Position numbers and translations under genes: made by a program
Notes under the pieces: generated by a model
The model's input: only the letters and a program-made list of their open reading frames with translations
Database searches by the model: none
What the model was told of the DNA's origin: nothing
Shown: positions 36,210 to 53,398 of the stretch, piece after piece
How the letters are laid out: every line of letters starts with the position of its first letter
How positions within the stretch are numbered: the stretch's first letter is position 1
NCBI GenBank assembly: GCA_045127455.1
Contig: JBGVQK010000077.1
Location: 2,370 to 66,369 of the forward strand
Direction of reading: 5' to 3'
Source of the DNA: Eubacteriales bacterium
Lineage (GTDB): Bacteria; Bacillota; Clostridia; Oscillospirales; CAG-272
Length of the DNA stretch: 64,000 bases

Positions 36210-36340
36210 CTCGCACCTCCCTTTTATACTTTCTTTCCCTTATTATATATGATTTTTGGCTCTCTGTCAACGAAATTTTGATGAAAAGAAATAGGAATTT
36301 GTTTTTTTCTTCTTTTTGCAACCAAAATTTTGCGCAAGTG

Positions 36341-36369
36341 TTGACTTTTTGGGCGCGATTTTGTATAAT
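36341..36369 (+). promoter_or_regulatory. Consensus sigma-A promoter of the ceramidase-like gene
   Basis: TTGACT-17 nt-TATAAT. Confidence 0.65.
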
Positions 36370-36409
36370 GATTTTAGAAATACTCCGAAAGAGCAAAGGA
36401 GGAGCCCCT

Positions 36410-37711
36410 ATGAAAAACACTCTGCGCCTCGGCTTTGCCGATGCCATTATTACACCGCAGCACCCCGAATACATCTATCTTGACGGCTACGGCTTTCGCC
36501 TTTCCCCCGCCACCGAGGGCGTGCGCGACGATCTGCACGCAAAGGTGTGCGCAATGGTAGAGGGAGAGAGAATCTTTCTTTTGTTCTCGCTCGATCTCAT
36601 TGGGCTACGCGAGGATACTTATCGCCTTGTGACCTCGCAAATCAGCGATTTGACGGGTGTTGCGCGCGAGAATATGGCGCTCTCTTGTATTCACACCCAC
36701 GCCGCTCCCGCCTCGGGAATTCTTGACGAGCTCCCCATCGACACCGATTATTTCGCCTACGTGGGCGAGATTTGCGGACGTGCCGCTCTGCGCGCGATCG
36801 AACGCGCTTGCCCTGTAAGCGCATCCTTTTCTATTCTGCCGCAAACGCTGCAAACCAATCACAACCGCCGCGAGGGGCGCGACGTCATTGACCGCTCCAT
36901 CCGTGCCGTAGCGTTTCACAACGAGGAAGGCAAGCTGTGCGGTGTGCTTTGCTCTGCCGCTTGCCATGCCGTTGTTAACACCGCATATTCGATTTCTGCC
37001 GACTGGCTGGCAGAGCTCAACAAGCTCTCAACCGACGAGGTTCCCTACCTCTTTTTGCAGGGACGTGCCGCAGATATCAATCCGCAGCTCTACCTCAAGC
37101 TCCCCATCGACGAGCTGATCGAGCGACTTGGGCGCGAATTATCAGTACCCGTTGCGCAATTTGCTACTCATTCGCAAGCAGGAAAACCTCTTTCGGGTGC
37201 GCTGACAAGACGCTATGAGATGGTCCGCATCCCGATGAAAAAGATGACCGATCTTGCATCGGTTCGCGAAGCGATCGCTCGCGAGTCCGAGGCTTATCGC
37301 GCGTTGACTCCCGACAATATTCAAAAGCATTTTGTGCTGCGCCAGCTGCAATGGTGGCGTCATATGGAAAAAATGATTGAGAACGGCGAGGATTTTGCCC
37401 TGCGCGTTCCCTTGCAGGTCCTGGCAATTGGAAAGGCTTGCGTGTTCCTGTTTGTTCCCTTTGAGCTTTTAACGCTCACCGGCAACAAGCTTGAGGATAT
37501 GTACGCCAACGCCGGCTTTGCGCGCGAAACGGTATACGTATGCGGTTATTCCAATATGACCGAGGGATATCTTGCCCCCGTTGAAGAGTTCCCCTTTGGC
37601 GGCTATGAGGTGGCAGGTGCCGCGCATTGGTATAACATTCTCGAGGCATCGCCCGAGAGCGAGCCTGCGCTTCTTGATTGGTTCCAACGCGTTAGCGAGG
37701 AATTGAAATAA
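36410..37711 (+). CDS. Neutral/alkaline ceramidase-N-terminal-domain-like hydrolase (uncertain)
   Basis: Start set at MKNTLRLGFADAIITP (RBS AAGGAGGA). The LDGYGFR and CIHTHAAP motifs resemble the ceramidase-like family. Confidence 0.45.
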   Translation: MKNTLRLGFADAIITPQHPEYIYLDGYGFRLSPATEGVRDDLHAKVCAMVEGERIFLLFSLDLIGLREDTYRLVTSQISDLTGVARENMALSCIHTHAAPASGILDELPIDTDYFAYVGEICGRAALRAIERACPVSASFSILPQTLQTNHNRREGRDVIDRSIRAVAFHNEEGKLCGVLCSAACHAVVNTAYSISADWLAELNKLSTDEVPYLFLQGRAADINPQLYLKLPIDELIERLGRELSVPVAQFATHSQAGKPLSGALTRRYEMVRIPMKKMTDLASVREAIARESEAYRALTPDNIQKHFVLRQLQWWRHMEKMIENGEDFALRVPLQVLAIGKACVFLFVPFELLTLTGNKLEDMYANAGFARETVYVCGYSNMTEGYLAPVEEFPFGGYEVAGAAHWYNILEASPESEPALLDWFQRVSEELK

Positions 37712-37773
37712 GCCTTTGTAGGGACCGGCGTCCCCGGCGGTCCGTTGCCAAAATAAACATCATAGCAAAAACA

Positions 37774-37806
37774 CCCCGCGCCCTTCGATGATCGAAGGGC
37801 GCGGGG
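37774..37806. terminator. Bidirectional intrinsic terminator
   Basis: CCCCGCGCCCTTCGAT-G-ATCGAAGGGCGCGGGG is a perfect palindrome with T-rich tails on both strands. Confidence 0.85.
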
Positions 37807-37834
37807 CTTTTATTGCTTATTTGTGTTTTTTGAA

Positions 37835-40078
37835 TTAGTGGTAGAACTCAAGAACTACCGAGAGACCGCCTTGGGTCAGAACAACTCTTTCAGCTGCCTG
37901 GAATGCCATAATGGTTGCCAAGTGTTCAGCGTTTGCAGGATTGAGAGCGTTGCCTGCAAGGTCAACAAAGGTGGTACCATTGAAGTAAATGGTGTGTGCG
38001 TTGCCTTGTGCATCGTATGCGGTGAGGAAAGGAGGCAGCATGGTGGGACCACCGTTTGCAAGAGCGTAATCGGAGATCTGCTTAATGATTCCCCATTGTA
38101 CGTTCTCTGCACTTTGGTTTCTATCCATACCTACACCGTCAATAAAGAGCGAGCCTTGTGCATCGGTACCTGTAATAACTGCAGCAGCATCACTACCCTC
38201 GGGCATCAGCAAGCCTTGAATGTTCATCTTGCCGTTGTTATCAAACAAGCTGCCAAGGGTTGCTTGCTTCATACCCTCGCTCAACGCCTTAATAGATGCA
38301 ACAATGGAGTTGCCGTTAACAGCGGTGAACCAGATCTCTTCGCCACTTACGTGGGTCTCAAATACGGTGTTGGTTGCTACAAACATGGGCTTTTGATATA
38401 CGTTATCAACCTTGGGGCTGGCTGCAATTGCCATAGGACCGCCGGCACCGTTGAAGAAGGAATCTACAAAGGTTGCCTTGGAATTGGACCACATATGAAT
38501 TGCGTTTTGGTAAGAGTCGTAGCACTTAACCTTGTTAACGTTCATAATAGAGCCTTGGTCTGCAAAATAGGTGATAAAGAAGGAGTTGCCAAGCATATTG
38601 TTGAACTCAGCCTTTACTTGGTAGGTTGCCTTGAAGAAGATCAAGCCGCCCGCGGAAACAAGGTTACCGTCAGCGTCAACGGTGTTGTTTCTTGCTGCGT
38701 TACCAATGATGCTGAGGTTTTGGATGGTAACTGTGGGGTAATTCTCAACAGCGGTATCGTTGTCGTTGAGGAATTGGAAAAGGGTGGAGTTGGAGAAATC
38801 GGAGCCGTAATCGTCAAGGGTTCCCTCTTCGCCGAAAACTGCGGGAGATGCAATCAGCGGGAATTGGCTTACGTTGAGCGAGAAGAGATTGCCTTCAACT
38901 ACAAAGGTTTCGTCAGCAACCATCAAACGGCGGTAGATGAAAGACCAATCCTTGAGGAACTTGGTGCCTGCGGGAATGGTGATGGTCTCCTCGGGATTGA
39001 GCGCGTTCTTATAAACGATGTCCTTTTCGGTGGTTCTGAAGAATACTGCGGGAACGTCGTCAGCGGTCAGGGTAAGGTCAGCGTGCAAAACGATGCCGGA
39101 AACGGTAACGTTGCCGATGCCCTTTTCGTTCTTGAATGCATCCCATGCGTGAGCATCCCAATCCTCTTCACGGTTATCGGTGTTGTCGTTATCTACAACG
39201 GCAAGCTCCCATGCCTCGTAAATGTTGTATGCCTTAATAACCTTTGCTTCAAGCACAACAGGGTTGAAGGAATCGAAAATGTAGTGCTCATCGGAAGGAA
39301 GAACAGAGATCTGAACGGTCAGGCCCTCTGCATCTGCCGAGAAGGTGTAAACGCCCTTGTAGGTATCAACGGTAGCGATCAGCGTTTCGCCATTGTAGAA
39401 GGAAACAAGGTTGCCCTCTCCTGCGGTTTCGGTGAGTGCTACGTATCCATCCTCGGTGAGAACAGACATTTTAACAACTGCATAGAAGTTTTCAAGTGCC
39501 TCAATGGTATCGTCATCGTTAAGAACTGCGAGCTTGGGAATGAAACGGAATGCGTTTTCGTTACCAACAACGTAGGTCTTGTTGCCAACTGCAAATTCGC
39601 CTGCAAAGCCTGCATCACCGTACTTGAGCTCGGTGTTTACGTTGTTTGCGCTATCAAAGCTGACAAGAGAGTCGGGCTTTTCAAATTGAACCGCAATAGA
39701 AACGTCGGATGTGCCGGAGTTCTCGTCGGTTACCTTAATGGTAACAACTGCCTCTTGCTTTACGTTCAGGTGAGGATCCATAAAGGATACCTTAACCTCC
39801 TTTTCACCTACGGTAGCGGTGATATCCTGCGCGTAGGTAATGGTAAGCTCATTAAAAGTATAAACTTTGTTCAAGGATTTGTCGGAATAGGTAGCGGTTG
39901 CTTTAATACCGGAGAAATCAATTTCCTCACCAACCAAATAATTGGTCTTAACAGAGGAACGGTCTACGGTAAAGGATTCCAATTTGAGGGTGCCCTTCAG
40001 CAGAAAATCACAGGCTGCAAGGGTAAAAACCATAGCCAATGCTGCTACAAATGCGATAAACTTAAACGTCTTTTTCAT
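37835..40078 (-). CDS. 747-aa surface lipoprotein (Ig-like N-terminal domain plus large beta-rich region)
   Basis: Signal peptide with lipobox (VFTLAAC). LVGEEIDFSGIKATATYSD is a bacterial Ig-like pattern. The remainder is N/T/G/V-rich with no catalytic motif recognised. Confidence 0.65.
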   Translation of the reverse strand: MKKTFKFIAFVAALAMVFTLAACDFLLKGTLKLESFTVDRSSVKTNYLVGEEIDFSGIKATATYSDKSLNKVYTFNELTITYAQDITATVGEKEVKVSFMDPHLNVKQEAVVTIKVTDENSGTSDVSIAVQFEKPDSLVSFDSANNVNTELKYGDAGFAGEFAVGNKTYVVGNENAFRFIPKLAVLNDDDTIEALENFYAVVKMSVLTEDGYVALTETAGEGNLVSFYNGETLIATVDTYKGVYTFSADAEGLTVQISVLPSDEHYIFDSFNPVVLEAKVIKAYNIYEAWELAVVDNDNTDNREEDWDAHAWDAFKNEKGIGNVTVSGIVLHADLTLTADDVPAVFFRTTEKDIVYKNALNPEETITIPAGTKFLKDWSFIYRRLMVADETFVVEGNLFSLNVSQFPLIASPAVFGEEGTLDDYGSDFSNSTLFQFLNDNDTAVENYPTVTIQNLSIIGNAARNNTVDADGNLVSAGGLIFFKATYQVKAEFNNMLGNSFFITYFADQGSIMNVNKVKCYDSYQNAIHMWSNSKATFVDSFFNGAGGPMAIAASPKVDNVYQKPMFVATNTVFETHVSGEEIWFTAVNGNSIVASIKALSEGMKQATLGSLFDNNGKMNIQGLLMPEGSDAAAVITGTDAQGSLFIDGVGMDRNQSAENVQWGIIKQISDYALANGGPTMLPPFLTAYDAQGNAHTIYFNGTTFVDLAGNALNPANAEHLATIMAFQAAERVVLTQGGLSVVLEFYH

Positions 40079-40100
40079 TTTTTTGCCTCCTTTAAATGGG

Positions 40101-40607
40101 TTAGGAATTGGTATCTTTAGGGACTCTGCCCATAAGAACGATTTGGGTGCTGACGTTAGAGCCGTCAGTTGCGCGAATGGTAACCGTTATAGCACGGTTA
40201 GGCTTGAGAAATACGAAGGTACGCGACGTTTCGTGGAACACGACCACGCCTGCGTTGGTCTCCTTATCGAATTCAAATTTTACGTTTGTGCTGTCAGCCA
40301 AGTGCGGCAGGACCTCGTAGTTGATCTGAATGGCGTTGGGGTTGTTGATAATGCTTTCGTCCTCTTCGGTGTAGGGGTTTTCTTCGCTTGCGGGAATAAA
40401 ATCAAAGAGGAATAACGGCTTACCACCCAGGTTCTGCTTGGATTCAATGGTTACGGGGTCCTCGTTTTGCACGGTTACGCTATTGCATTGAATCTCTTGC
40501 ACGTAGGTAATTCCGTCAAAAACCTTAACCTCGAGGCCAAAGAAGTTAACCACCGCAATGGATGCGATATACACCACAAGAAGAACGATAACTATTGTTT
40601 TTTTCAT
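40101..40607 (-). CDS. 168-aa N-terminally anchored extracytoplasmic protein
   Basis: MKKTIVIVLLVVYIASIAVVNFF forms the TM anchor. TAATG overlap with the upstream gene. Confidence 0.55.
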   Translation of the reverse strand: MKKTIVIVLLVVYIASIAVVNFFGLEVKVFDGITYVQEIQCNSVTVQNEDPVTIESKQNLGGKPLFLFDFIPASEENPYTEEDESIINNPNAIQINYEVLPHLADSTNVKFEFDKETNAGVVVFHETSRTFVFLKPNRAITVTIRATDGSNVSTQIVLMGRVPKDTNS

Positions 40608-42310
40608 TACTGTTTCTCCCTGTAAAATGCTTTAATTTTGGAAATATAGGTGAACACCTTGTACCCTGCAAGTGCTGCGGCAACCGCTGCAAGCTTGATC
40701 CAGGTTGCGGGGTCGTTGCGCGAGGAGAAGAAGAGTGCCAAGATAAACACCACAGCCGAAATGATAATGGCGCTAACGCCCGAGCCAACCTCGTTGGGGT
40801 TGTTTGCTTGCTCGTTAAAGGTTGCGTACTGCTCGTATTGCGGATTCATAATGTCCTTTTCTGCGCTGGAGAACAGATGTGCCGCATAAATGCAGTAGAT
40901 CATAATACCGATCATACACGCATCCATAGGCGCCATCGAGGATTCAATGGCAAAAATGTTCACCGTCAGTATGCATCCCACAAGCGCTAAGATCATAGGA
41001 AAGATCAGCTTGGAAAACAGCAGAGTCGCGTAAGGCGTGGGCTGCACCTTGTTGAGATAAGAGCTGGAGCCGTCGCGGCTGTAGACCGATGCAATATCGA
41101 TGTTTGTCATCATCATCATTAAAAGAATAACGATGATGTTGAAGCAAACGGTCATTTGTGTGCCCAAAAAGCGCGTGTTCATTGCGGAATAGAGCTTGTT
41201 GAGCAAATAGACTGCCATTGGCATAATGACGATCAGCACACCGCCAAGCTTGATGAATGCGTTGGAGCGTAGCCCGATGACGAATTCCTTTTTCATAGCC
41301 GAAAGGAAGGGCGGCATTCTGTGGTTCGCTTTTTTTCTTAACTTGTCATTCTTTTTGAACTCAAATGGCGTGGATGCCATGCGGCAGAACAACGGCTTGG
41401 AGCACAAGAAGCAAAGCACCAAAAGCACGCAGCCAACACCGATCAGGATCAAAAGATTGATAAGCGTATCGGAGTGGAAGATGACGTTGGAAAGACCTAC
41501 GGTTTTACCAACGATCAGCTCGGTAAAGGAGTATATGGGAGCAAACATTCTCGTATAATCGGCAAGAAATTCTTGAATCTCCCAATAGGTGTTGCCCCAG
41601 GTTTCAATAAAGTTGATGTTTTCCGGCACAAGACCGATCAACCACCACACAAGCAGGATCGCTCCAAGGCCGACTGCGCTGTACAAAACGTACTGCAGGA
41701 TCTTAACACGGTTAAGGAAGATATAAACGAACATTGCGGGAATGGAGAATAGAGCCGCCAAAAGAACGGGCACGCTCGATATCAGCAAAAACATCAGGAT
41801 CAGCCACGGGTAATACAGGAAGGCGTATCCCTTGATGATACCGTACGCAATGAACATGGGAATGGTGAACATAAAGCTCTTTCTCAGCTCGTAAACGTAA
41901 TAGGTTGCAAGCTTTGAAAAGAAAATGAGCGAGGGCGTTGCGGGGAAGGTTAAAAGAACTGTGTTGTCCTTGGAAAAATACAAGGACTTCATCAGGCCTA
42001 TCGTATCGGTGACCAGCGAAAGCGCAAGCATAACGCCAAAAATAAGCGAGACGACCGACACGGGAATATCGTGAACGAGCGAGAAAAGACTGAGCAGCTT
42101 GACAAAATAGAACACCACCGCGATAACCGCCGTAATGGCTGCAAACTCAATTAAGAGCCACGTCAATTTAAAAATCAGTTTTCTCTTGGAGCGGATATAG
42201 CCAAGGTCCATTTTTTCCTTGAGCTGCATTTTTACCAGCGTGGTAAGCTTTCTCCACTTTTCAAGGAAGGACTTAACAAAGCCGCTCTTTTTCAGCTTTG
42301 TTTTGGTCAT
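40607..42310 (-). CDS. 567-aa polytopic membrane protein (putative permease partner)
   Basis: At least 10 TM helices. ATGA overlap with the upstream ATPase fusion. Confidence 0.6.
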   Translation of the reverse strand: MTKTKLKKSGFVKSFLEKWRKLTTLVKMQLKEKMDLGYIRSKRKLIFKLTWLLIEFAAITAVIAVVFYFVKLLSLFSLVHDIPVSVVSLIFGVMLALSLVTDTIGLMKSLYFSKDNTVLLTFPATPSLIFFSKLATYYVYELRKSFMFTIPMFIAYGIIKGYAFLYYPWLILMFLLISSVPVLLAALFSIPAMFVYIFLNRVKILQYVLYSAVGLGAILLVWWLIGLVPENINFIETWGNTYWEIQEFLADYTRMFAPIYSFTELIVGKTVGLSNVIFHSDTLINLLILIGVGCVLLVLCFLCSKPLFCRMASTPFEFKKNDKLRKKANHRMPPFLSAMKKEFVIGLRSNAFIKLGGVLIVIMPMAVYLLNKLYSAMNTRFLGTQMTVCFNIIVILLMMMMTNIDIASVYSRDGSSSYLNKVQPTPYATLLFSKLIFPMILALVGCILTVNIFAIESSMAPMDACMIGIMIYCIYAAHLFSSAEKDIMNPQYEQYATFNEQANNPNEVGSGVSAIIISAVVFILALFFSSRNDPATWIKLAAVAAALAGYKVFTYISKIKAFYREKQ

Positions 42311-44562
42311 ACCGTTTCTCCTTGGGGTTGATTCTCGGTTGCCTCCTTAACAGATACGGGGGCTTGCGTGTTGCCGTCGATCATGCTCATATAGAACTGC
42401 TCGAGCGGAATGCCGCTCTCCTTGATCTCGGCAATGGTCTTTGTGCAAAGGATCTGTCCCTTGCGAATAATGGCAATGCGGTCGCAAATATTTTCCACAA
42501 CGTCGATGATGTGGCTGGAGAAGAAGACGATGTTGCCGCGTGCGGCGTGCTCCTTCATACATTCTTTAACCTGGAAAATGGATTCGGGGTCAAGACCCGT
42601 CAAGGGCTCGTCCAAGATCCAGATCTTGGGGTTGTGCACAAGCGCCGACATAATGGTGATCTTTTGCTTCATGCCGTGGGAGTAGGTCTTCATCGGGTTG
42701 TCGATGGCGGTCTCCAAGCGGAATCTCTTAATGTATTCTGCCATACGCTCGTCGCGATCCTCGCGCGAAACGTCGTAAAGGTCGGCAATGTAGTTGATAT
42801 ATTCTCTACCTGTCAGGTTCTCATAAAGCGCGTAGTGGTCGGGCACAAAGCCGATCTGCATTTTTGCCTCAACCGCTTGCTTTTCGGCATCGTAGCCCGA
42901 AATCTCAATGCTACCTGAGGTGATGGTTTGAATGCCGACAATGGATTTGATGATGGTAGATTTGCCCGCACCGTTGGGGCCGAGGAAGCCAAAAATCTGG
43001 CCGCCGTCAATTTCAAGATTTGCTTTATAAACCGCATAGACGTCACTGGTGGAGTAACGCTTTGAGAAATCGCGAAGGATCAATTTTCCCTCGTTTTGCG
43101 GATTCATAGGTTCTTGCATACTTCTTCCGGCAAGATGCGCCTCCAGCGCCAGCTGATCGGCCTTGATCTTGCGGTTCCTTTCCATAATGATTTTGTAGGT
43201 ATCAACAACCTCAAACGCCTGCTCGTAGAGGAACCACATAGCAAACGAAAGTGCAATGTAAACCACAAAGTAAAGCGTTTGATAAACGGGATAGAGCACA
43301 AACGTCAGATCCTTATAGTGGAACACTGCCTTGATGTCGCGCAGATCCTCTGCCCACTTACCAAGCTTTTCGGCAATAAAATCGGAGTTGATAAAGAAAA
43401 AGTCAACACCCGCATCGTAGTTGGTAAGCCATGCGTTCATAACCAAAACGAGAACGTAATATCCAAAGAACGCCACAAGAGAGTAGATAAACTGCTTCAT
43501 TTTGGGGCGTTGGAAAATGCGCAAGCTCATCAACAAAACAGGCAACAGCATTGCCATATAGTGGTTAGACCAGAACTGTATAGAACCGGCCGCGAGCCAG
43601 TTGAGCCCCTCGGTATCGGGCATAACCATTGCAAAGAATGCGCCCAACACGTTGATAAAGATGGTGAAGTAATAGAGCTTTTCCATCTTGAAGATCAGTA
43701 CCAGGGGAATGATGAACATTGCCGTGTTACAAAGGTGCAACGGCCATGCCGTCAAGTCGGTAAAGATGGAAAAATCGTAATTGTAGCAGAAGGATATCAT
43801 GGTTGCCATGCTGATGTAAAGCAGGGCGAATCTTCTCTGTTCATACTCGTATTTGGTAAAGAGAAAATGCACGCCAAAGCCAAATACCACAGAACCGTAG
43901 ATGAACAGACGGTGGATCAGGTTGAAATCCTGAACGTAAACACCGGAGTCCCCAAGACCAACAAAGGCTTGCGGTACCCAGTGAGGCATGGAAATGAGGA
44001 ACATTCCAACAAAGATCGCAACCGTTGTCAAAAGCTTTTTCCATTGGAATTGTCCGCGCTTTTGTCGGGTAATTTGGAAGATTGCCAAACCAAGTCCCAC
44101 ACCAAGCTCAAGCGCAAAGGCAAGCAGTCGGTAGTGGAAGCCCTCTGCCCCATCTCCGTTTTGCGCACGGTTGAGCATAGGAATTGCCACAATAGAGGCG
44201 GCATAAACCACGGCGGCTACGTAACGAACGATAGGCGCTACAAGCGGAATGTGCTTTTCGAAGAAGGGGTACGTGATTGCCGCGAGCTGAACCGCGTAGA
44301 TAAGCCAAAACAGCACCGTTGACAAAACAACCAGTCCCGCGCCCTGCGGACCAAAAGGCGAAGAAATGTTAAGACCGATGGTCTCCTGAATCAAAGGCGT
44401 TCCGCCAAGAAAGCGGACAAAAAAGAGTACAGAGTAAACAAGCGCAACAACGCGCGTATTGTTAAAGCGCTCTCCAAATACGTTCTTGTTTCGCAAAAAG
44501 AACAAAAACGCAAAGGTAAGCAAACAAGATGCCACCGCGGCACCGTAGTAAAGATAGTTCAA
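42307..44562 (-). CDS. Fusion protein: polytopic YwaF/TIGR02206 (TMEM164-like) membrane domain plus C-terminal ABC ATPase domain
   Basis: N-terminal roughly 450 aa are hydrophobic and contain the TAWPLHLCN motif (family hallmark LPLHLC). The C-terminus has Walker A GPNGAGKST, signature YSHGMKQK, Walker B IWILDEP and H-loop SSHI. Confidence 0.75.
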   Translation of the reverse strand: MNYLYYGAAVASCLLTFAFLFFLRNKNVFGERFNNTRVVALVYSVLFFVRFLGGTPLIQETIGLNISSPFGPQGAGLVVLSTVLFWLIYAVQLAAITYPFFEKHIPLVAPIVRYVAAVVYAASIVAIPMLNRAQNGDGAEGFHYRLLAFALELGVGLGLAIFQITRQKRGQFQWKKLLTTVAIFVGMFLISMPHWVPQAFVGLGDSGVYVQDFNLIHRLFIYGSVVFGFGVHFLFTKYEYEQRRFALLYISMATMISFCYNYDFSIFTDLTAWPLHLCNTAMFIIPLVLIFKMEKLYYFTIFINVLGAFFAMVMPDTEGLNWLAAGSIQFWSNHYMAMLLPVLLMSLRIFQRPKMKQFIYSLVAFFGYYVLVLVMNAWLTNYDAGVDFFFINSDFIAEKLGKWAEDLRDIKAVFHYKDLTFVLYPVYQTLYFVVYIALSFAMWFLYEQAFEVVDTYKIIMERNRKIKADQLALEAHLAGRSMQEPMNPQNEGKLILRDFSKRYSTSDVYAVYKANLEIDGGQIFGFLGPNGAGKSTIIKSIVGIQTITSGSIEISGYDAEKQAVEAKMQIGFVPDHYALYENLTGREYINYIADLYDVSREDRDERMAEYIKRFRLETAIDNPMKTYSHGMKQKITIMSALVHNPKIWILDEPLTGLDPESIFQVKECMKEHAARGNIVFFSSHIIDVVENICDRIAIIRKGQILCTKTIAEIKESGIPLEQFYMSMIDGNTQAPVSVKEATENQPQGETV

Positions 44563-44699
44563 AATCAGTTCCTCCCGTAAAGGATTTGGATGGGTCGATA
44601 TCGAATATACAAAATAGATACTCCGTTCAAGAAATATCTCGTCAATTGCTTCAAAAGGTTACACGCATTTGCTTTATAAAAGCAAAAAACAAAAATTTC

Positions 44700-44738
44700 C
44701 AAAAAATCAGCCCCTGTTTTGTTAAAAAAGGACTGATC
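44700..44738 (-). terminator. Probable terminator after tRNA-Pro
   Basis: Minus strand reads ATCAGTCC-N16-GGGCTGAT (one G-U pair) followed by TTTTTT. The large loop lowers confidence. Confidence 0.4.
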
Positions 44739-44756
44739 TTTTGAGATTTTTGACTG

Positions 44757-44833
44757 TGGTCGGAGTGACAGGATTCGAACCTGCGGCCTCTTGGTCCCGA
44801 ACCAAGCGCACTACCAAACTGTGCCACACCCCG
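44757..44833 (-). tRNA. trnP: tRNA-Pro (anticodon CGG), CCA-3' encoded
   Basis: Hand fold of CGGGGTGTGGCACAGTTTGGTAGTGCGCTTGGTTCGGGACCAAGAGGCCGCAGGTTCGAATCCTGTCACTCCGACCA. Anticodon arm is CTTGG-TTCGGGA-CCAAG. T-loop is TTCGAAT. Confidence 0.95.
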
Positions 44834-45020
44834 ATTTAAAATTTGTTTTGTCGTTTTCCGCTTACTGCTTTGCTCCCCCTTGTGCGATTGGTGAGGGGAC
44901 CGAACCGCCGAATGCCGTTTTGCGGCTGAGGCTTCGCACATACCAAACTGTGCCACACCCCGAGAAAATTGATTTTGTTTTTTGCTTTCTTTGTGCGATT
45001 GGTGAGGGGACCGAATCGCC
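44834..45020 (-). repeat. Tandem duplication in the tRNA-Pro leader: two C-rich-loop hairpins plus a duplicated 5' fragment of tRNA-Pro
   Basis: GTGCGATTGGTGAGGGGACCGAA(C/T)CGCC occurs at 44882-44909 and 44993-45020. TACCAAACTGTGCCACACCCCG occurs at 44812-44833 (the real tRNA) and 44941-44962 (a fragment). Confidence 0.85.
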
Positions 45021-45096
45021 ATGTAACCATTCTTTGCTCTCAATGTGATGGCAATTTGTTGGGAATGTGAACTTTCCTTCACTTAGTTACTACGAC

Positions 45097-45125
45097 ATTA
45101 TAACACAACATCGCGCTTTTGTCAA
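45097..45125 (-). promoter_or_regulatory. Perfect-consensus sigma-A promoter driving the tRNA-Pro leader
   Basis: Minus strand reads TTGACA-17 nt-TATAAT (TGT extended -10), about 255 nt upstream of the mature tRNA 5' end. Confidence 0.7.
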
Positions 45126-45249: not shown

Positions 45250-47469
45250 TTATTTTTCAATGATAAAGGTGGCATAAGCAAAGGTTTCACCTTTTACAAA
45301 TTCATATCCCTCGAACACAATAAAATCACCATAAACACGCACAATATACCCCTCGGAGCGGCCATCACCGCTGCCAACCAATACGCGGGGTGTGGAGCAC
45401 GCGGGAATGTGTACCATCGTTGCATAGGTTCCGTCCTTATTGTCAATGTTCTTATCATCGTTGGTCTTTCCGGGCTTGGCTTCTACAAGTTGCGAATCCA
45501 ACGCCCAGTGTGAGTGTCCGCTAAAGTAAACTACGTTGGTGTATTTTTTGAAGAGCTCATCAAACTTCTTGTACTCTACGGTAGAACTAATCAAAGGAAG
45601 TCCGTATTCGTTGCCAGATGAGGTTGCGTCGCCCACTTGTTCATCCATAAAGGTGTGGAAGAAGAGGAAGACGGTTCTATCTTTATACTCTTCCAATCTT
45701 TCTTCAAGCCACTTGAGCTGATGGTCATCCAAAAGGCGAGAGGAAGAAGAGCCGTAATCGTAATAAATTTGATGCAAATAAACCATCACGCTACCATCGG
45801 GAAGCTCAACCACATAGTCGAGATTATCTTTGCCAAAGTTGGAGTAAGTGAGCTCGCTGTCATAGTCTACCACTCCGCGTGTATATTCCATATACCAGTC
45901 ATAAGAAAATCCCGTATATTTGGACTCGTGATTGCCCGTCGTAGTAAAGATAGGCATATCGGGAGCATGCTTGTAAATTTCTTGAATAGCTTGTGCGTGC
46001 AGAACGTATTCACTTTTGATATTGTCATAAGAGAAATCTCCGCAAATACCAATGGTGATTGCCCCCTTTTCGTAGAGCACCTTTGCAGCGTTGATAAAAT
46101 GGTTATACGGAATATCCGTAGAGCCGTAGCGCGTGCCTTGGTGAGTATCCGAAAGCGCACCAAAAACGTAAAGTTCATCTTCGATCAGCAGGCGCTCTGC
46201 AGGAATGGTGTAGGAATACGTCATCTGCTTATTGCCGCTAACGGCAATAAGATGGGTTGCTCCCTTGGGGATTGCGGTAAAGGATTGAATGGTTATCTCG
46301 GATTCTGCGCCCGCAGCAAACTCGTCGGAATAAAGCATTGAGTAGTCCTTGAGCTTTCCGTTGGCATCTGCCCAATAAAACGTATAAACGTCCGAGGTTT
46401 CGGGCAAGAACGTCAACGTTCCACCTGCAAAACCGGGGGTATCGTACAGAAAATTGTAGTCGATGATTCCTGCGGGAACGTAAGCCTTGCCACACCCTGT
46501 GCAAACGTTGTTTTCATAAGTATGATTTTGGGTCTCCGGAATCGTTACGGATCGAGTCCTTCCGCAAGAGCATGTGCTTATTTTTTCGCCGGGCGTTGAA
46601 CAAGTTGCCTCTTTGAGAACCGTCTCATTTTTGTAAATATGTGCTTGATATTCCCCTACCTTTACAAAATAGAAATCGCGGTAGTGCTGCGATTTTTTAC
46701 AGGAAAAGGTATGCTCGATTCTGAGAGTGTTCTCGCCTGCAACAAGGTTTACGGTAATGCCGTACATATACACGCCGTTCGTTTCGTTGCGCATACTCGC
46801 ATAATTCATATTGGCGTAGCCGTAGGAGGTTTGGAAGACCTGCTCGTTGGCAGTTCCGCCATTGAAAATGTATTTTGCCCCGCGAACCTGATCGTCCTTC
46901 AATCTCAAATGAACGATCATTTCGTAAACACCCGCCTGCTCAACGTCAAACGTGTAGATCAGGTGATCGCTCGTATACTCTTCAACATACCAATGCTGAT
47001 AGCCTCCCTCCTCAACGGGACCCGCCTCTTGGGAAAGCTTCTTATCAAAATCTCCTGCCCAAAGGTGAATCCCCTCTTCGTATCCTTGCAGCAAGGTAGG
47101 AGAAAAATGATACGAATCGGTTTCTCCGTCGCCATCGGCATCATAAATAGACGGTACGGAATAGAGTGTAACGGTACTTGCACCGCAAACAGTACATTCG
47201 GCATTGAAATAAACGTGGTGTCCAATCGCGGGAACAGCTTCTTCTTTGGTGTCACCGCAAGCAGAACAAGTCAAAACTCTCTGCCCATCCTCAATACAGG
47301 TGGGCTCTTTAGTGATAACAGGCTCTCCATAGGTATGCGTATGTGGGGCGGTTTCTTGCGGTGTGGTAATCTCCGGATTCGTTAACGTAGTTTGCGATTC
47401 GGAATTATAAGGATAACACGCAGATAAAAACAACGTTAAAAAAGCCAACAAAAAACATAATTTCTTCAT
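45250..47469 (-). CDS. Secreted lipoprotein: Cys4 modules, carbohydrate-binding-like middle region, and a C-terminal calcineurin-like metallophosphoesterase
   Basis: Start set at MKKLCFLLAFLTLFLSAC (lipobox). Phosphoesterase motifs are ALSDTHQG, CGDFSYD, TGNHES and GHSH. Confidence 0.75.
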   Translation of the reverse strand: MKKLCFLLAFLTLFLSACYPYNSESQTTLTNPEITTPQETAPHTHTYGEPVITKEPTCIEDGQRVLTCSACGDTKEEAVPAIGHHVYFNAECTVCGASTVTLYSVPSIYDADGDGETDSYHFSPTLLQGYEEGIHLWAGDFDKKLSQEAGPVEEGGYQHWYVEEYTSDHLIYTFDVEQAGVYEMIVHLRLKDDQVRGAKYIFNGGTANEQVFQTSYGYANMNYASMRNETNGVYMYGITVNLVAGENTLRIEHTFSCKKSQHYRDFYFVKVGEYQAHIYKNETVLKEATCSTPGEKISTCSCGRTRSVTIPETQNHTYENNVCTGCGKAYVPAGIIDYNFLYDTPGFAGGTLTFLPETSDVYTFYWADANGKLKDYSMLYSDEFAAGAESEITIQSFTAIPKGATHLIAVSGNKQMTYSYTIPAERLLIEDELYVFGALSDTHQGTRYGSTDIPYNHFINAAKVLYEKGAITIGICGDFSYDNIKSEYVLHAQAIQEIYKHAPDMPIFTTTGNHESKYTGFSYDWYMEYTRGVVDYDSELTYSNFGKDNLDYVVELPDGSVMVYLHQIYYDYGSSSSRLLDDHQLKWLEERLEEYKDRTVFLFFHTFMDEQVGDATSSGNEYGLPLISSTVEYKKFDELFKKYTNVVYFSGHSHWALDSQLVEAKPGKTNDDKNIDNKDGTYATMVHIPACSTPRVLVGSGDGRSEGYIVRVYGDFIVFEGYEFVKGETFAYATFIIEK

Positions 47470-47587
47470 AACAATCCTCCTTGTGCAAAATACGCACACA
47501 GTATGCTTTTGCCATTTGATTATATCATTTTTTTCGTTTCTTTTCAACATCTGTGGTTAAATTATTTTCATCTGTGCTTAAAAAATA

Positions 47588-47648: not shown

Positions 47649-50225
47649 GTGAAGAAAAAGCTTACCATTGGCATTCTTGCGCACGTTGATGCGGGCAAAA
47701 CAACGCTTTCGGAAGCGATGCTCTACCTGTGCGGCAAAATTCGTTCGATCGGTCGCGTGGACCATCGCAACACCTATCTTGATACCAACGTTGTGGAACG
47801 CGAGCGTGGAATTACCGTTTTTTCAAAGCAAGCGCGGTTTTCCACACCCGTGTGCGATTTTATTCTGCTTGACACTCCCGGCCACGTGGATTTTTCGGCT
47901 GAAGCCGAGCGCACGCTCACACTGCTTGACTACGCCATTTTGGTGGTGAGTGCCGCCGACGGTGTGCAAAATCACACCCGCACGCTTTGGCAACTGTTGG
48001 AGTATTACAACGTTCCCACCTTCCTTTTTGTCAACAAGACCGACATTTCCATCAAGCTTGCCGAGGAGATGGAAGAAGAGCTCTCTCGCACGCTCTCCCC
48101 TCGTTGCGTCGCCTTTCACGAGGCGCAAAACGATGCCGAGCGCGACGAAAAATTGGCAATGGCAGACGAGGAATTTTTAGAAGCCTTCTCCGCAGGTGAA
48201 GCCATTGGCGACGGGGAGCTTGCAGAGGCGGTTGCCGAGCGTCGACTCTTCCCCGCTCTGTTCGGCTCTGCTTTGCGCTTGACGGGCGTTGATCATCTGT
48301 TGCATACGCTTGACCGCCTTACCCTGCCACCCCTTTACGAAAATACCGAATTTGGCGCACGTGTATATAAAATTGCACGCGACGGCAACACGCGCCTGAC
48401 CTATCTCAAGGTGACGGGCGGCACGCTCCGCGCACGCGATGAGATCACGTATCTTTCAGCCGACGGGCAAAAAATGCGCGAAAAGGTCAATCAGTTGCGC
48501 CTCTACTCGGGCGAAAAATATGAGCAGGTCGACTCTGCCGCGGCGGGCGAGATTTGTGCCGTTGTCGGGCTTTCCGCCACCTTTATTGGAGAGGGACTCG
48601 GCTTTGAGAGCGACGCAGGTCACCCCGTGCTGGAGCCCGTTCTTTCCTATCGCATCGCACTCCCCGACGGGTGCGATCCTATGGTATACTTCCCCAAACT
48701 CAAGGAGCTGGAGGAGGAAGAGCCTTCCCTACATCTGTATTGGAACAGCGAGCTTTGCCAAATTGAGGCAAGACTCATGGGAGAGGTGCAGATCGAGCTT
48801 TTGCGCCGCCTGATCCTTGACCGTTTTGGCATCGAATGCGAGCTTGATGCAGGCAAAATTCTTTACAAAGAAAAACCCGCGGCACGTTCGCTTGGCATTG
48901 GTCACTTTGAGCCGCTCCGCCACTATGCCGAGGTGCAGCTGCTCATTGAGCCTCGCCCCAGAGGCTCGGGGCTTTCCTTTGACGTGCATCTGCCGCCAAA
49001 CGCGCTCGACCTCAATTGGCAACGCCTCATTCTTTTTAATCTTTACGAAAAGGTACACAGAGGAACGCTCACAGGTGCAATGCTGACCGATGCAAAAATC
49101 ACGCTTGTTGCAGCACGTGCACACCTAAAGCACACCGAAGGTGGCGATTTCCGCGAAGCGACCCTGCGCGCGGTACGGCAAGGATTGATGCAATCAGGCT
49201 GTATTTTACTTGAGCCCTATTACAAATTCCGCCTTGAGCTTCCCTCTGCTTTTGTGGGGCGCGCAATGTCGGACTTGCAAATGCGTGCGGCTACCTTTGA
49301 GGTAGAAAGCGCCGTGGGCGACAGAACAGTGATCGTTGGTCGCGCTCCCGTTTCAACGCTTCACGATTATGCACGCGAGCTCATTTCCTATACACGCGGC
49401 GAGGGGCATATTGCCTGCACGTCTGACGGTTACGAGCCCTGCCACAACCAGGAAGAGGTAGTGGCTGCCGCAAATTATGACCCCGTTGCCGACCTTGAAA
49501 ACACGCCCCACTCGGTATTTTGCGAGCATGGCGCAGGCGTTGTCGTTCCTTGGGACGAGGTGGAGAATTGGAAGCATCTTGAAGCTGACGTTTCCCCGAG
49601 CGATGCCGCCGCAAGCATTCTCCCCGCTCCGCGCAAGCTGGCAAACAAATATCAGTTGAGCGATGACGAAATTGAAGCCTTGATGCTGCGCTCCTTTGGT
49701 CCCATTCGCCGCAAGCAGTATAGCGAAAAACGCATCAATGCCGCCAAAGAAGAGAAAAAACGCCCCCACCGAAAGCCCCTGCCCGAGCGCCATATGACAA
49801 TTGTAGACGGCTACAACGTGATTTGGGCGTGGGATTCCTTGCGCGAGATTGCAGAATATAGCTTGGAAAAGGCGCGAGAGACGCTGATGGACATTTTGAG
49901 CAACTACGTCGCCTTTACCAAAACCGAGCTAACGCTTGTGTTTGACGCCTACCTTGTGCCCGATGGCGCAGGCTCGGAGATCACGCACGACGGCTACCGC
50001 ATCGTCTACACAAAAGAAAATCAAACCGCCGATGCCTATATTGAACGAATGATGCACGAGCTTGGTCCCAACTACAACGTGCGTATGGTATCGGGCGATA
50101 AGCTTTTGCAGTTCTCGGCAGTCCATTCGGGCATTTTGCGCGTCACCGCCGCCGAATTTGAAGCCGAGGTCACATCGGTTGGCGAAGAGATTAACGAATT
50201 TATTAAAAAGCTTTCGCAAAAGTAA
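47649..50225 (+). CDS. TetM/TetO-like (EF-G family) translational GTPase fused to a C-terminal YacP/Rae1-type NYN domain
   Basis: GTG start with AAAGGAGA RBS. G1 is AHVDAGKTT, G3 is DTPGH, G4 is NKTD. Overall collinearity with Tet(M) runs to about residue 640. Residues 716-858 (nt 49794-50222) read MTIVDGYNVIWAW...LVFDAYLV...VYTKENQTADAYIE, matching B. subtilis YacP motifs (VDGYNMIGAW, VFDAHLV, FTKENETAD). Confidence 0.8.
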   Translation: MKKKLTIGILAHVDAGKTTLSEAMLYLCGKIRSIGRVDHRNTYLDTNVVERERGITVFSKQARFSTPVCDFILLDTPGHVDFSAEAERTLTLLDYAILVVSAADGVQNHTRTLWQLLEYYNVPTFLFVNKTDISIKLAEEMEEELSRTLSPRCVAFHEAQNDAERDEKLAMADEEFLEAFSAGEAIGDGELAEAVAERRLFPALFGSALRLTGVDHLLHTLDRLTLPPLYENTEFGARVYKIARDGNTRLTYLKVTGGTLRARDEITYLSADGQKMREKVNQLRLYSGEKYEQVDSAAAGEICAVVGLSATFIGEGLGFESDAGHPVLEPVLSYRIALPDGCDPMVYFPKLKELEEEEPSLHLYWNSELCQIEARLMGEVQIELLRRLILDRFGIECELDAGKILYKEKPAARSLGIGHFEPLRHYAEVQLLIEPRPRGSGLSFDVHLPPNALDLNWQRLILFNLYEKVHRGTLTGAMLTDAKITLVAARAHLKHTEGGDFREATLRAVRQGLMQSGCILLEPYYKFRLELPSAFVGRAMSDLQMRAATFEVESAVGDRTVIVGRAPVSTLHDYARELISYTRGEGHIACTSDGYEPCHNQEEVVAAANYDPVADLENTPHSVFCEHGAGVVVPWDEVENWKHLEADVSPSDAAASILPAPRKLANKYQLSDDEIEALMLRSFGPIRRKQYSEKRINAAKEEKKRPHRKPLPERHMTIVDGYNVIWAWDSLREIAEYSLEKARETLMDILSNYVAFTKTELTLVFDAYLVPDGAGSEITHDGYRIVYTKENQTADAYIERMMHELGPNYNVRMVSGDKLLQFSAVHSGILRVTAAEFEAEVTSVGEEINEFIKKLSQK

Positions 50226-53200: not shown

Positions 53201-53398
53201 GGGAACGGGCTCATCGTAGCGCAACCAAAGCACAGCACCGATAACTACCGATACAACAAAGCAGAGGCATGCGGCAAGGGCTCCCCATTTTACCCATCCT
53301 TTGTTTGCATGTGTCTTTTTCCACTCTCCGGGGGCTGCATCAAGGATTAGCTGCGTGTCAATTTGACGCAACGCCTTAAAAAGTTTTTTTCCACTCAT
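50276..53398 (-). CDS. 1040-aa single-pass membrane protein: short cytoplasmic anti-sigma-like N-terminus, TM helix, two Cys4 modules, and a very large BspA-type leucine-rich-repeat ectodomain
   Basis: ATGA overlap with the upstream ECF sigma gene. TM helix is WGALAACLCFVVSVVIGAVLWL. There are dozens of roughly 23-aa repeats of the form IP.SV..IG..AF..C..L..I (LRR_5/BspA type). Confidence 0.8.
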   Translation of the reverse strand: MSGKKLFKALRQIDTQLILDAAPGEWKKTHANKGWVKWGALAACLCFVVSVVIGAVLWLRYDEPVPPEPTLPHEHTFGEWQTAKDATCADPGEEVRFCSCGEKETRYTSLLQHFAGEWVIEKEPVIREPTPEDPDAREPGLMCQFCHYCGAKLDEEVIPAIGSLGLAYAVNLDGKTCTVVGIGNCIDTDIIIPPNFCGYHVTKIENNAFQNKTDITSVTLPDTLITIGDYAFSGCTGLTEVVIPDSVESIGTNAFSGCTNLSEITFSKSLASIGDYAFSKCSALTNIVLPDSVIALGAGAFSECENVQTITLSQNLKIIGEEAFRGCRLIASIAIPESVEKMDRDAFKNCHDLTDFHITDLARWCQIDTGVSNSGLASLSSNRIRRIYLNGELLVNVDIPEGTTSIGGHAFYGCKDIVNVTIPSSVQTIGKYAFAECENLADISIANGVESIGAGAFKKCLSLTEITIPKSVTYIGGSLLYGCDNLVRLSVPFLGSTVDKYVWSDANLEYLVEKENKSLREVTLSNSKHVGQMAFAHYWENLTSITLCEGIEIIYPEAFLWCTGLTSIVIPDSVVEIEMGAFRECTSLESVTFGEGLTKIGRIAFQNCHALTKINTPNNLKHVGENAFSTCELLLQMENGVTYVDRIAIQCDKTLTSVVFRENTLLLGDHIFSGCNSLISVTLPEGLVSIDEYAFSGCTSLPSIDLPSTLKSIGAHAFSECTVLKDVTLPNGIEYIGEYAFSECVSFTKFAFPDSVLEIGGYVLSYCENLTQVVLCEGITYLPEGLLYKCESVTEFIIPETVTSIGDFAFTGCIGLTSFTLPKGVISVGKNAFAGCHGLTNIDFVAGIEHLADGMFKACLGLVNITIPASIKSIGTSTFAGCTNLENVVLSENVEIIGESAFASCQSLKSIHFPESITEIGEYAFSNCTSLSEIVIPDNVQRLGYFAFFDCTALEKAIIGKGVTVIEFKTFCGCISLTEVTLSENITKIQNEILSGCTSLKNIIFCGTQSEWDEINKFGAWNLNTPNYYIVCIDGTLVKS

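Follow-up and report, generated by a model that had tools for sequence, protein, structure and literature searches.

Why should the ATPase subunit of an ATP-binding cassette (ABC) transporter carry, within the same chain, a polytopic membrane domain of an acyltransferase family, and why should it be encoded together with a permease and two surface proteins? This question is raised by a four-gene operon, G1 to G4, in a 64,000-nucleotide stretch of DNA (the window) of an Eubacteriales bacterium (assembly GCA_045127455.1, contig JBGVQK010000077.1, positions 2,370 to 66,369), which a preliminary description based on the letters alone had put forward as a candidate undescribed system. Four minus-strand open reading frames (ORFs), overlapping or nearly touching, span positions 37835-44562 of the window. 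In the order of transcription these are:

42307..44562, minus strand: G1, 751 aa, a membrane domain with 13 transmembrane (TM) helices fused to an ABC ATPase, with a TTG start
40607..42310, minus strand: G2, 567 aa, a PF16949 permease
40101..40607, minus strand: G3, 168 aa, an N-terminal TM anchor and one immunoglobulin (Ig)-like (Big_2-like) ectodomain
37835..40078, minus strand: G4, 747 aa, a lipoprotein with a Big_3 Ig-like domain followed by a large domain with beta-helix signatures

The answer reached is a graded one. It is highly probable that the four products form one envelope complex around a type V (ABC-2) engine, with G3 and G4 as obligate extracytoplasmic partners. In general terms, a lipid-linked, ATP-coupled envelope function with dedicated surface partners is the most reasonable description, and the explanation which best covers the observations, held by analogy with characterised enzymes and with somewhat less than even confidence, would be an ATP-coupled, outward-facing transacylation most likely acting on G4. 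The four frames and the coupled junctions reported in the preliminary description are all present in the sequence: G1 and G2 share an ATGA overlap, G2 and G3 a TAATG overlap, and the 22-nt gap between G3 and G4 contains AAGGAGG. In addition, the ribosome-binding site GGGAGG lies 8 nt upstream of the TTG start of G1.

G1 is composed of four parts, namely:

43948..44562, minus strand: residues 1-205, N-terminal bundle of six TM helices (AlphaFold2, AF2, model)
43222..43947, minus strand: residues 206-447, TMEM164/YwaF-like core of seven TM helices (PF14808, TIGR02206)
43087..43221, minus strand: residues 448-492, conserved cytoplasmic connector (AF2 model and alignment)
42310..43086, minus strand: residues 493-751, ABC nucleotide-binding domain of the DrrA/GldA (ABC-2) class

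The union of a YwaF/TMEM164 domain with a complete ABC ATPase, as first described, was borne out by Pfam matches to both domains and by the location of every motif cited. PF14808 (TMEM164) covers residues 217-438 with 63.9 bits (cut-off 25, E 1.9e-17, model positions 6-212 of 217), and PF00005 (ABC_tran) residues 514-654 with 98 bits; the NCBIfam model TIGR02206 (TMEM164-related integral membrane acyltransferase) was found at E 1.8e-16 with 60.1 bits against a cut-off of 75. The motif WPLHLCN occupies residues 273-279, and Walker A GPNGAGKS(T), the signature YSHGM, Walker B IWILDEP and the H-loop SSH lie at 528, 627, 647 and 682, respectively. Walker A, Q-loop, signature, Walker B with its catalytic Glu and H-loop are intact and near-invariant across the family. 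The best NCBIfam models for the ATPase, DrrA (TIGR01188, 208 bits) and GldA (196 bits), both score below their equivalog cut-offs and indicate the class only. On this profile evidence G1 is a divergent member of the TMEM164/YwaF family, and the chance that its membrane domain would turn out to be an ordinary ABC-2 one, which the preliminary description had itself raised, did not materialise, since the profile searches give PF14808 and TIGR02206.

The AF2 model of residues 1-490 (predicted local distance difference test, pLDDT, 90.7; predicted template modelling score, pTM, 0.87) contains 13 TM helices in two parts, so that the polytopic domain of roughly 450 aa originally described has to be divided: the TMEM164-like core stands, at about residues 206-447, and residues 1-205 are a separate six-TM bundle. 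For this bundle no recognisable family or relative was detected, and the idea that it is a degenerate duplicate of the core was discarded (hhalign E 0.048, probability 1%). It nevertheless carries conserved residues, R50, W86 and R145, together with an invariant E152, in an alignment of 128 orthologs. A single model helix, residues 425-477, runs from the last TM segment of the core toward the ATPase, its residues 448-477 being the cytoplasmic part, and within the connector R462, D469, L471-L473, R480 and E484 are conserved. As regards variation in length, in four loci (L058, L071, L068 and L075) G1 aligns from residue ~140-190 onward, in proteins of up to 885 aa, and a further ortholog, in L090, reaches 1062 aa. 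Because of this partial alignment of longer orthologs, the N-terminal bundle appears to have been replaced or extended in some lineages, with core and ATPase kept.

The core also seems to have retained what is needed for chemistry. Cys278 (codon 43729-43731, within WPLHLCN) and His334 (codon 43561-43563) are invariant in 128/128 orthologs, down to 33% identity, as are H217, R218, Y222, H276, N304 and N392, and P274, C278, N279 and H334 are unchanged in nine remote relatives at 22-37% identity. The AF2 model places C278 on core helix 3 and H334 on core helix 5, with a spacing of 56 residues. In human TMEM164 a similar arrangement is formed by C123 and H181, on TM3 and TM5 of a 7-TM dimer and 58 residues apart, and its acyl-Cys123 thioester has been captured by cryo-electron microscopy (PMC12830759; bioRxiv 10.1101/2022.07.06.498872). 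YwaF proteins have been reported to keep a Ser, Thr or Cys nucleophile together with an invariant His. From this conservation, the TMEM164/YwaF-type domain of G1 is apparently catalytically competent. As for the side of the membrane on which it would act, the ATPase is necessarily cytoplasmic and 13 TM helices precede it, which places the N-terminus of G1 outside; the positive-inside rule strongly agrees, with 0.295 Lys plus Arg per residue in the predicted cytoplasmic loops against 0.047 in the external ones (128 sequences). The model thereby locates C278, H276, H217, H334 and E152 in the outer-leaflet half, near a conserved 45-residue external loop (residues 380-424).

G2, which had been described as a membrane protein, is indeed polytopic; that description was incomplete, since the profile evidence identifies a permease of the PF16949 (ABC_tran_2), ABC-2-like family. 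The Pfam match scores 30.5 bits over a cut-off of 25.7 (model positions 8-485 of 542) and recurs in 39 of 44 orthologs (best E 7.5e-16). The AF2 model of G2 was read as a pair of type V (ABC-2) membrane domains within a single chain, and the top Foldseek matches are type V permeases, namely CcmB, Rv1217c, NosY, PmtCD and ABCG5/8. CcmB is matched with a template modelling score by target (TMt) of 0.56-0.58 and probability 1.0, and the ~510-residue permease chain of 8K1N/8K1O/8K1P (Rv1217c, PMC11406275) over the full length, with a score by query (TMq) of 0.35-0.44 and probability 0.92-0.97. A type V fold consists of two non-swapped domains of six TM helices, with connecting helices before TM1 and TM7 and coupling helices between TM2/3 and TM8/9. 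It is at these expected coupling-helix positions that the motifs YFSKDN (111-116) and YSRDG (410-414) are found, and the helix pattern of the moderate model, together with the paired S-[KR]-D-[NG] motifs, fits the type V layout. A local alignment pairs both of these motifs, and an internal duplication of G2 can be suggested on that basis, its hhalign E of 0.17 not being significant. Sequence searches of the PDB with G2 returned noise only. With a probable type V double membrane domain in G2, the earlier, implied notion that the TMEM164-like fold stands in place of the transporter's own membrane domain is not supported: because G2 would complete the transporter, the TMEM164-like domain would be an add-on to the ATPase subunit, not a substitute.

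The remaining two products conform to what had been proposed for them. G3, an N-anchored ectoprotein of 168 aa, has a conserved TM anchor, which is the most conserved part of the protein in an alignment of 43 orthologs, followed by an Ig-like ectodomain for which weak Big_2 matches were obtained in 3 of the 43. G4 is a 747-aa lipoprotein with an Ig-like module. Its lipobox, LAAC, ends in Cys23 (codon 40010-40012), whose column is invariant in the alignment, and a simple pattern search of the first 70 residues located a lipobox-like motif ending in Cys in 70/70 orthologs. The Big_3 domain lies at residues ~37-117; the window protein itself scores 19.6 bits, just under the cut-off of 21.2, and 27 of 34 orthologs match the model (best E 2.9e-21). 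The family profile of G4 also matches PDB entry 2l7y at 5.5e-10. By its sequence signatures, the large C-terminal region is likely a beta-helix. A NosD-like identity for G4 was considered and rejected, as PF05048 matches none of the 34 orthologs.

The length of G4 varies between lineages from 704 to 1293 aa, the longer forms occurring in L016-L019, L021, L026, L027, L031, L036, L042, L064 and L079. Since the part which matches the window G4 begins ~1.7-2 kb downstream of G3, it is at the N-terminus that these forms are extended; that the addition consists of Ig-like repeats would be a guess. Antisense to G4, a plus-strand ORF of 765 aa (37823-40120), codon-aligned with G4 and longer than it, was dismissed as a shadow ORF and not a gene. 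It is open only because G4 contains no TTA, CTA or TCA codons (the counts in G1 are 0, 0 and 3), and the same effect is seen in 12 of 71 G4 orthologs.

Whether such an arrangement is peculiar to one genome or a settled solution was addressed through its distribution. The membrane part of G1 retrieves 773 database clusters, and the best 120 of the 773 are all fusions of ~750 aa, with the exception of two (498 and 529 aa) on contigs of 1.6-3.2 kb; with a distant ortholog as query, another 120 matches were obtained, nearly all fusions, the four shorter ones (366-579 aa) lying on contigs of 1.3-2.2 kb. The fusion architecture of G1 is shared by more than 240 database clusters, and the fusion occurs in at least 147 species-level genomes, all of uncultured gut Clostridia. 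The carriers are labelled Eubacteriales, Oscillospiraceae, Christensenellaceae, Borkfalkia and similar, and come from the guts of human, ruminant and other hosts. An exhaustive search of 1.84 billion representatives with the core domain alone found just 196 relatives, falling into two length classes, ~700-830 aa (fusions) and ~450-510 aa (the 13-TM unit without ATPase), and the relatives of the G1 core form what is, judged by this search, a narrow clade.

The context of the fusion was followed in 80 loci besides the window, 81 in all, by tblastn and clustering of ORFs. G1 is present in 81, G2 in 76, G3 in 76 and G4 in 72, and wherever enough DNA is present the order and strand G1-G2-G3-G4 are constant. 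The modal spacing in the orthologous loci is -4 nt for G1/G2 and -1 nt for G2/G3. The flanking genes are unrelated and differ from lineage to lineage, and the survey revealed no regulator, bacteriocin or immunity gene co-conserved with the operon. The co-conservation of the four genes elsewhere, on which the preliminary description had staked its proposal, is therefore upheld by an identical order across the surveyed loci within unrelated flanks. Source annotations are generic ("ATP-binding cassette domain-containing protein", "YwaF family protein", "hypothetical protein"), and full-text literature searches returned no description of the fusion or of the operon, so that the claim of an undescribed system was sustained: all the parts come from known families, and it is the combination itself for which no description was found in the literature searched.

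Alternative layouts, collected by context look-ups and hidden Markov models of the N-terminal part of G1 and of G2, G3 and G4, are informative as to which parts belong together. Two independent split operons (L081 and L088) have the order 13-TM gene, ATPase gene, G2, G3 and lipoprotein, and L090 has the 1062-aa fusion followed by G2, G3 and G4. In a remote lineage (L082) a G4-like gene lies beside the 13-TM gene, together with an ATPase gene, and in L086 a G4-like gene lies directly upstream of the 13-TM gene, with no ABC genes downstream. The alternation of fused and split forms links enzyme and ATPase functionally. Moreover, a lipobox-like motif ending in Cys is present in the last gene of every sampled locus with an available N-terminus, including L088, where a different, Big_2-rich and Ig-rich protein of 844 aa with a lipobox takes the place of G4. 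From these layouts, the G4-like surface protein is seemingly the oldest recurring partner of the 13-TM enzyme, a point which, like the predicted outward position of the C278/H334 site, the preliminary description had missed.

Taken to the level of mechanism, these observations leave it evenly balanced whether G1 contains an acyl-transfer enzyme, as its conserved residues suggest, that is active, faces outward and is coupled to the ABC cycle. G2 would provide both membrane domains in a single chain, and two copies of G1 would constitute the ATPase dimer, each bearing its 13-TM module via the conserved rigid helix. In the outer-leaflet half, the C278/H334 site would operate by a ping-pong scheme through an acyl-Cys thioester, as in TMEM164, the acyl group being drawn from a lipid of the membrane or a lipid-linked donor and handed, at the outer face, to an acceptor with a lipid anchor. 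For this role of acceptor the lipoprotein G4 of the same operon would be the foremost candidate, for instance at its N-terminal cysteine, for which LhaT (YpjA) and Lnt are precedents; Lnt uses acyl-Cys chemistry. ATP binding and hydrolysis by G1, relayed by G2, would serve either to flip or present the lipid donor, or to extract and position the lipid-anchored acceptor or product, and the TM helix of G3 would dock into the membrane assembly, its Ig domain touching G4 and bridging membrane and ectodomain. Since LhaT/YpjA acts on lipoprotein N-termini, the likely substrate shifts from the bulk lipid or polymer export of the preliminary description to a lipid-anchored surface protein. By the same analogy, that G4 or lipoproteins in general are the acyl acceptor can be put forward tentatively, as a somewhat doubtful possibility. 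The most specific form of the proposal, a dedicated ATP-powered lipoprotein-tailoring machine of monoderm gut Clostridia by which G4, and perhaps other lipoproteins, would be N- or O-acylated, must be considered unlikely as it stands; in it, the covalently attached, outward-facing transacylase of the ATGY family would be supplied by the ABC engine, which would either flip or present to it an acyl donor linked to a lipid, or present the lipoprotein anchor.

Several observations weigh against transacylation coupled to the ABC cycle. The TIGR02206 score of G1 is under the NCBI cut-off. The TMEM164 fold, which was to be verified by structure, is borne by the sequence profile PF14808; a Foldseek search of the PDB with the model of residues 1-490 gave a best E of 0.66 and no match to 9LW1 (the presence of which in the library was unverified), and PDB searches by phmmer of residues 1-490, by a 45-ortholog profile and by a 9-sequence core profile returned no match. 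Since these searches came back empty, it is by motif, spacing and position in the helices that C278/H334 can be equated with human C123/H181. For G2, the AF2 model reaches a moderate pLDDT of 72 from a shallow alignment, and its Foldseek search gave no match at E <=0.001. For the beta-helix of G4, the models Beta_helix or Pectate_lyase_5 matched weakly, and in 4 of the 34 orthologs. Co-conservation is the sole basis on which G3 and G4 are taken to touch G1 and G2. Solitary 13-TM relatives exist without ABC or G4 neighbours (L083 and L089), from which it follows that the 13-TM enzyme can evidently work without either. Finally, members of the AIG1 type within ATGY are hydrolases (bioRxiv 10.1101/2022.07.06.498872), and hydrolysis is possible instead of transfer.

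Other explanations are also to be weighed. If the TMEM164-like domain transacylated a lysolipid, a glycolipid or the anchor of a lipid-linked polymer, with the ABC engine flipping or exporting the product and G3/G4 only receiving or scaffolding it at the surface, solitary 13-TM relatives lacking G4 would be readily accommodated. TMEM164 does move acyl chains between phospholipids (bioRxiv 10.1101/2022.07.06.498872), type V transporters often handle lipids or lipid-linked polymers and bind lipids in their cavities (PMC11406275), and the nucleotide-binding domain of G1 belongs to a class which matches DrrA, GldA, NodI and LptB-like exporters. Such lipid remodelling or export, the reading of the preliminary description, is nonetheless rather unlikely, for it leaves unexplained that the 13-TM enzyme has a lipoboxed surface protein as its most persistent neighbour, even where no ABC genes follow, and that the last gene has stayed a lipoprotein after a swap of fold (L088); besides, no lipid or polysaccharide biosynthesis genes are co-conserved, the flanks differing in every lineage.

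Two further possibilities dispense with acyl transfer. In NosDFY(L) a type V ABC transporter works together with a lipoprotein and with a beta-helix protein of the periplasm, and NosY is among the top structural matches of G2, so that the ABC engine could be imagined to reshape, extract or shed G4 by mechanotransmission, in the manner of NosDFY-NosD/NosL, LolCDE or LptB2FGC, with the Cys/His domain as a deacylating hydrolase like AIG1 or ADTRP. The likeness of G3, with its highly conserved TM helix, to single-TM accessory subunits of the LptC/CcmD type would suit such a release machine, as would the inclusion of hydrolases in the ATGY superfamily (bioRxiv 10.1101/2022.07.06.498872). What makes it quite improbable is that no NosD (PF05048) match was found in the G4 orthologs, that a Cys nucleophile is the state of the transferases TMEM164/GPC1, AIG1 hydrolases using Thr, and that there is no evidence for release of G4. 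The operon could also encode an ordinary ABC-2 pump for the efflux of drugs, peptides or bacteriocins, or for immunity, the membrane domain of G1 being a non-catalytic anchor or regulator and G3/G4 passengers, given that the structure to which G2 is matched most closely over its full length is that of a rifampicin efflux pump (PMC11406275) and that the nucleotide-binding domain of G1 also matches lantibiotic-protection and phenol-soluble modulin (PSM)-export ATPases. This is very improbable: the invariance of Cys278, His334, H217, H276 and E152 over 128 orthologs argues for catalysis, G3 and G4 are conserved in order and translationally overlapping despite the different flanks, and no regulator, bacteriocin or immunity genes accompany them.

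The significance of ATP-coupled transacylation, if it is what the operon carries out, can be appreciated at several levels. The operon constitutes a concrete and widely conserved context, made up of an ABC engine, a cognate lipoprotein and a TM-anchored Ig protein, for the functionally uncharacterised bacterial branch of YwaF. A polytopic enzyme on an ATPase subunit is an unusual architecture, which also occurs split, and suggests a new way of coupling ATP to chemistry at the outer leaflet. Were lipoprotein tailoring to prove true, it would represent a pathway to a new lipoprotein chemotype and, to our knowledge, the first case of an ABC transporter in physical union with a membrane acyltransferase. 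The acylation state of lipoproteins is a determinant of TLR2 signalling, and the TLR2 view of abundant commensals, such as Christensenellaceae- and Oscillospiraceae-like bacteria, would then be altered. In short, this is a conserved combination, widespread among gut lineages that are themselves abundant, and it is suggestive as to mechanism.

As regards the boundaries of the operon, the following elements were located:

37773..37807, both strands: bidirectional intrinsic terminator, which closes the operon and a convergent ceramidase-like gene
44563..44756, minus strand: leader and presumed promoter region between tRNA-Pro and G1, with a hairpin and T-run right after the tRNA
44757-44833: tRNA-Pro, upstream of G1

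The bracketing of the operon proposed in the preliminary description was only half substantiated. The terminator is a two-way hairpin with a 15-16 bp stem, 12 GC pairs and T-runs on both strands. For the promoter below tRNA-Pro, a scan from tRNA-Pro to G1 gave nothing above threshold, and by eye weak -35/-10-like hexamers only could be made out; the promoter is the weakest part of this claim. A riboswitch or other RNA leader upstream of G1 was also sought and rejected, Rfam matching tRNA-Pro only. On the far side of the tRNA, a perfect sigma-70 promoter (TTGACA, 17 nt, TATAAT, with TG) is present on the minus strand at 45125-45097, ~260 nt before tRNA-Pro. The leader which follows it contains an exact 23-nt copy of the 5' end of tRNA-Pro (44941-44963, equal to 44812-44834) and a 30-nt motif occurring twice, at 44880-44909 and 44991-45020, with 97% identity; a single tRNA was called by ARAGORN and Rfam in the region 44812-45125. 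The arrangement may stem from a duplicate of the tRNA that has since decayed, or from an integration event long past.

The neighbours within the window encode a metallophosphoesterase lipoprotein, a ceramidase-like protein, a BadF-type ATPase, a SIS-domain protein, an EF-G-like/NYN protein and a BspA leucine-rich-repeat (LRR) protein; functional hints from them were set aside, the flanks being lineage-specific and unrelated. The convergent gene which shares the terminator (36278-37711, plus strand) matches the ceramidase family PF04734 marginally, over the C-terminal part only (33.7 bits, cut-off 32.1); this lipid-related neighbour is conserved only in the closest loci (cluster c28). Upstream of tRNA-Pro, 45250-47550 (minus strand) encodes a protein of 766 aa with a likely lipobox, LSAC, and a metallophosphoesterase domain. 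In L001-L006, L014, L024 and L031 the operon is immediately preceded by members of its cluster, c14, one to three in tandem and 770-1040 aa long, the cluster not being conserved with the operon outside closely related loci. Further on, 47649-50225 (plus strand) encodes 858 aa comprising a full EF-G/Tet(M)-like translational GTPase (GTP_EFTU, EF-G domains 2 and IV, EFG_C) and a C-terminal YacP-like NYN nuclease domain, a fusion which looks unusual, and 50276-53398 (minus strand) a BspA-type LRR surface protein of 1040 aa (LRR_5, 854 bits, nine stretches), unrelated to the operon; such proteins are typical of gut Clostridia.

How far, then, do known systems resemble this one? With TMEM164 (PF14808, PDB 9LW1) and YwaF (TIGR02206), G1 shares the Pfam family, the 7-TM core, the Cys on helix 3 and the His on helix 5, with a Cys-His spacing of 58 residues in TMEM164 and 56 in G1, for which acyl-Cys ping-pong is presumed. 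TMEM164 is a dimer, which would fit the ATPase dimer of G1. A typical YwaF is a standalone protein of ~240 aa, whereas in G1 the core is preceded by a 6-TM bundle and followed, at the C-terminus, by an ABC ATPase; its motif reads H-L-C-N where human TMEM164 has P-C-H, and its site, unlike that of TMEM164, would face the outside of a bacterial membrane.

The one characterised bacterial ATGY member is LhaT (YpjA, DUF1405) of Bacillus subtilis, which carries out extracytoplasmic N-acetylation of the alpha-amino group of the lipoprotein cysteine with acetyl-heptaprenylglycerol, a donor made in the cytoplasm, and the route by which this lipid-linked donor crosses the membrane has been left open, its flippase being unknown (PMC12345273). 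This gap could be closed by an arrangement in which the transacylase is tied directly to a type V ABC transporter. Both proteins are bacterial integral-membrane members of the ATGY superfamily, LhaT an acyl transferase and G1 a putative one; unlike G1, LhaT has six TM helices, stands alone with no known ABC partner, and its genes lie apart from one another and form no operon with a cognate lipoprotein. In the Pfam scan, G1 gave no match to DUF1405 (PF07187), PF14808 being the sole membrane family. G1 would thus be related to LhaT at the level of the superfamily only; it is not an LhaT, and by analogy it may work in a similar way.

As for the engine, Rv1217c-Rv1218c of Mycobacterium tuberculosis (8K1M/N/O) is a type V exporter in which a single chain holds the two membrane domains, the ATPase is a separate protein present twice, and the signature reads YSKGN (PMC11406275). 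It shares with G1/G2 the single-chain double membrane domain, as modelled for G2, the ABC-2-class ATPase and a non-canonical signature (YSKGN against YSHGM); between Rv1217c and G2 the sequence identity is ~10% and the Foldseek E-values are not significant. It differs in being a drug efflux system which has neither an enzyme domain on the ATPase nor G3/G4-like partners. NosDFY(L), going by the roles generally ascribed to NosD and NosL, resembles the operon in combining an ABC-2 engine with extracytoplasmic beta-helix and lipoprotein partners. It lacks an acyltransferase domain, however, and on the side of the operon G4 has no NosD match, there is no copper or N2O context, and no nos genes are found in the flanks. 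Finally, exporters of the PCAT type carry a C39 Cys/His peptidase domain, a soluble cytoplasmic protease, fused to a type IV exporter. In concept an analogy may be drawn with G1, a Cys/His enzyme fused to an ABC protein with processing coupled to the ATP cycle, the difference being that in G1 the enzyme is a polytopic membrane acyltransferase fold placed on the ATPase of a type V system.

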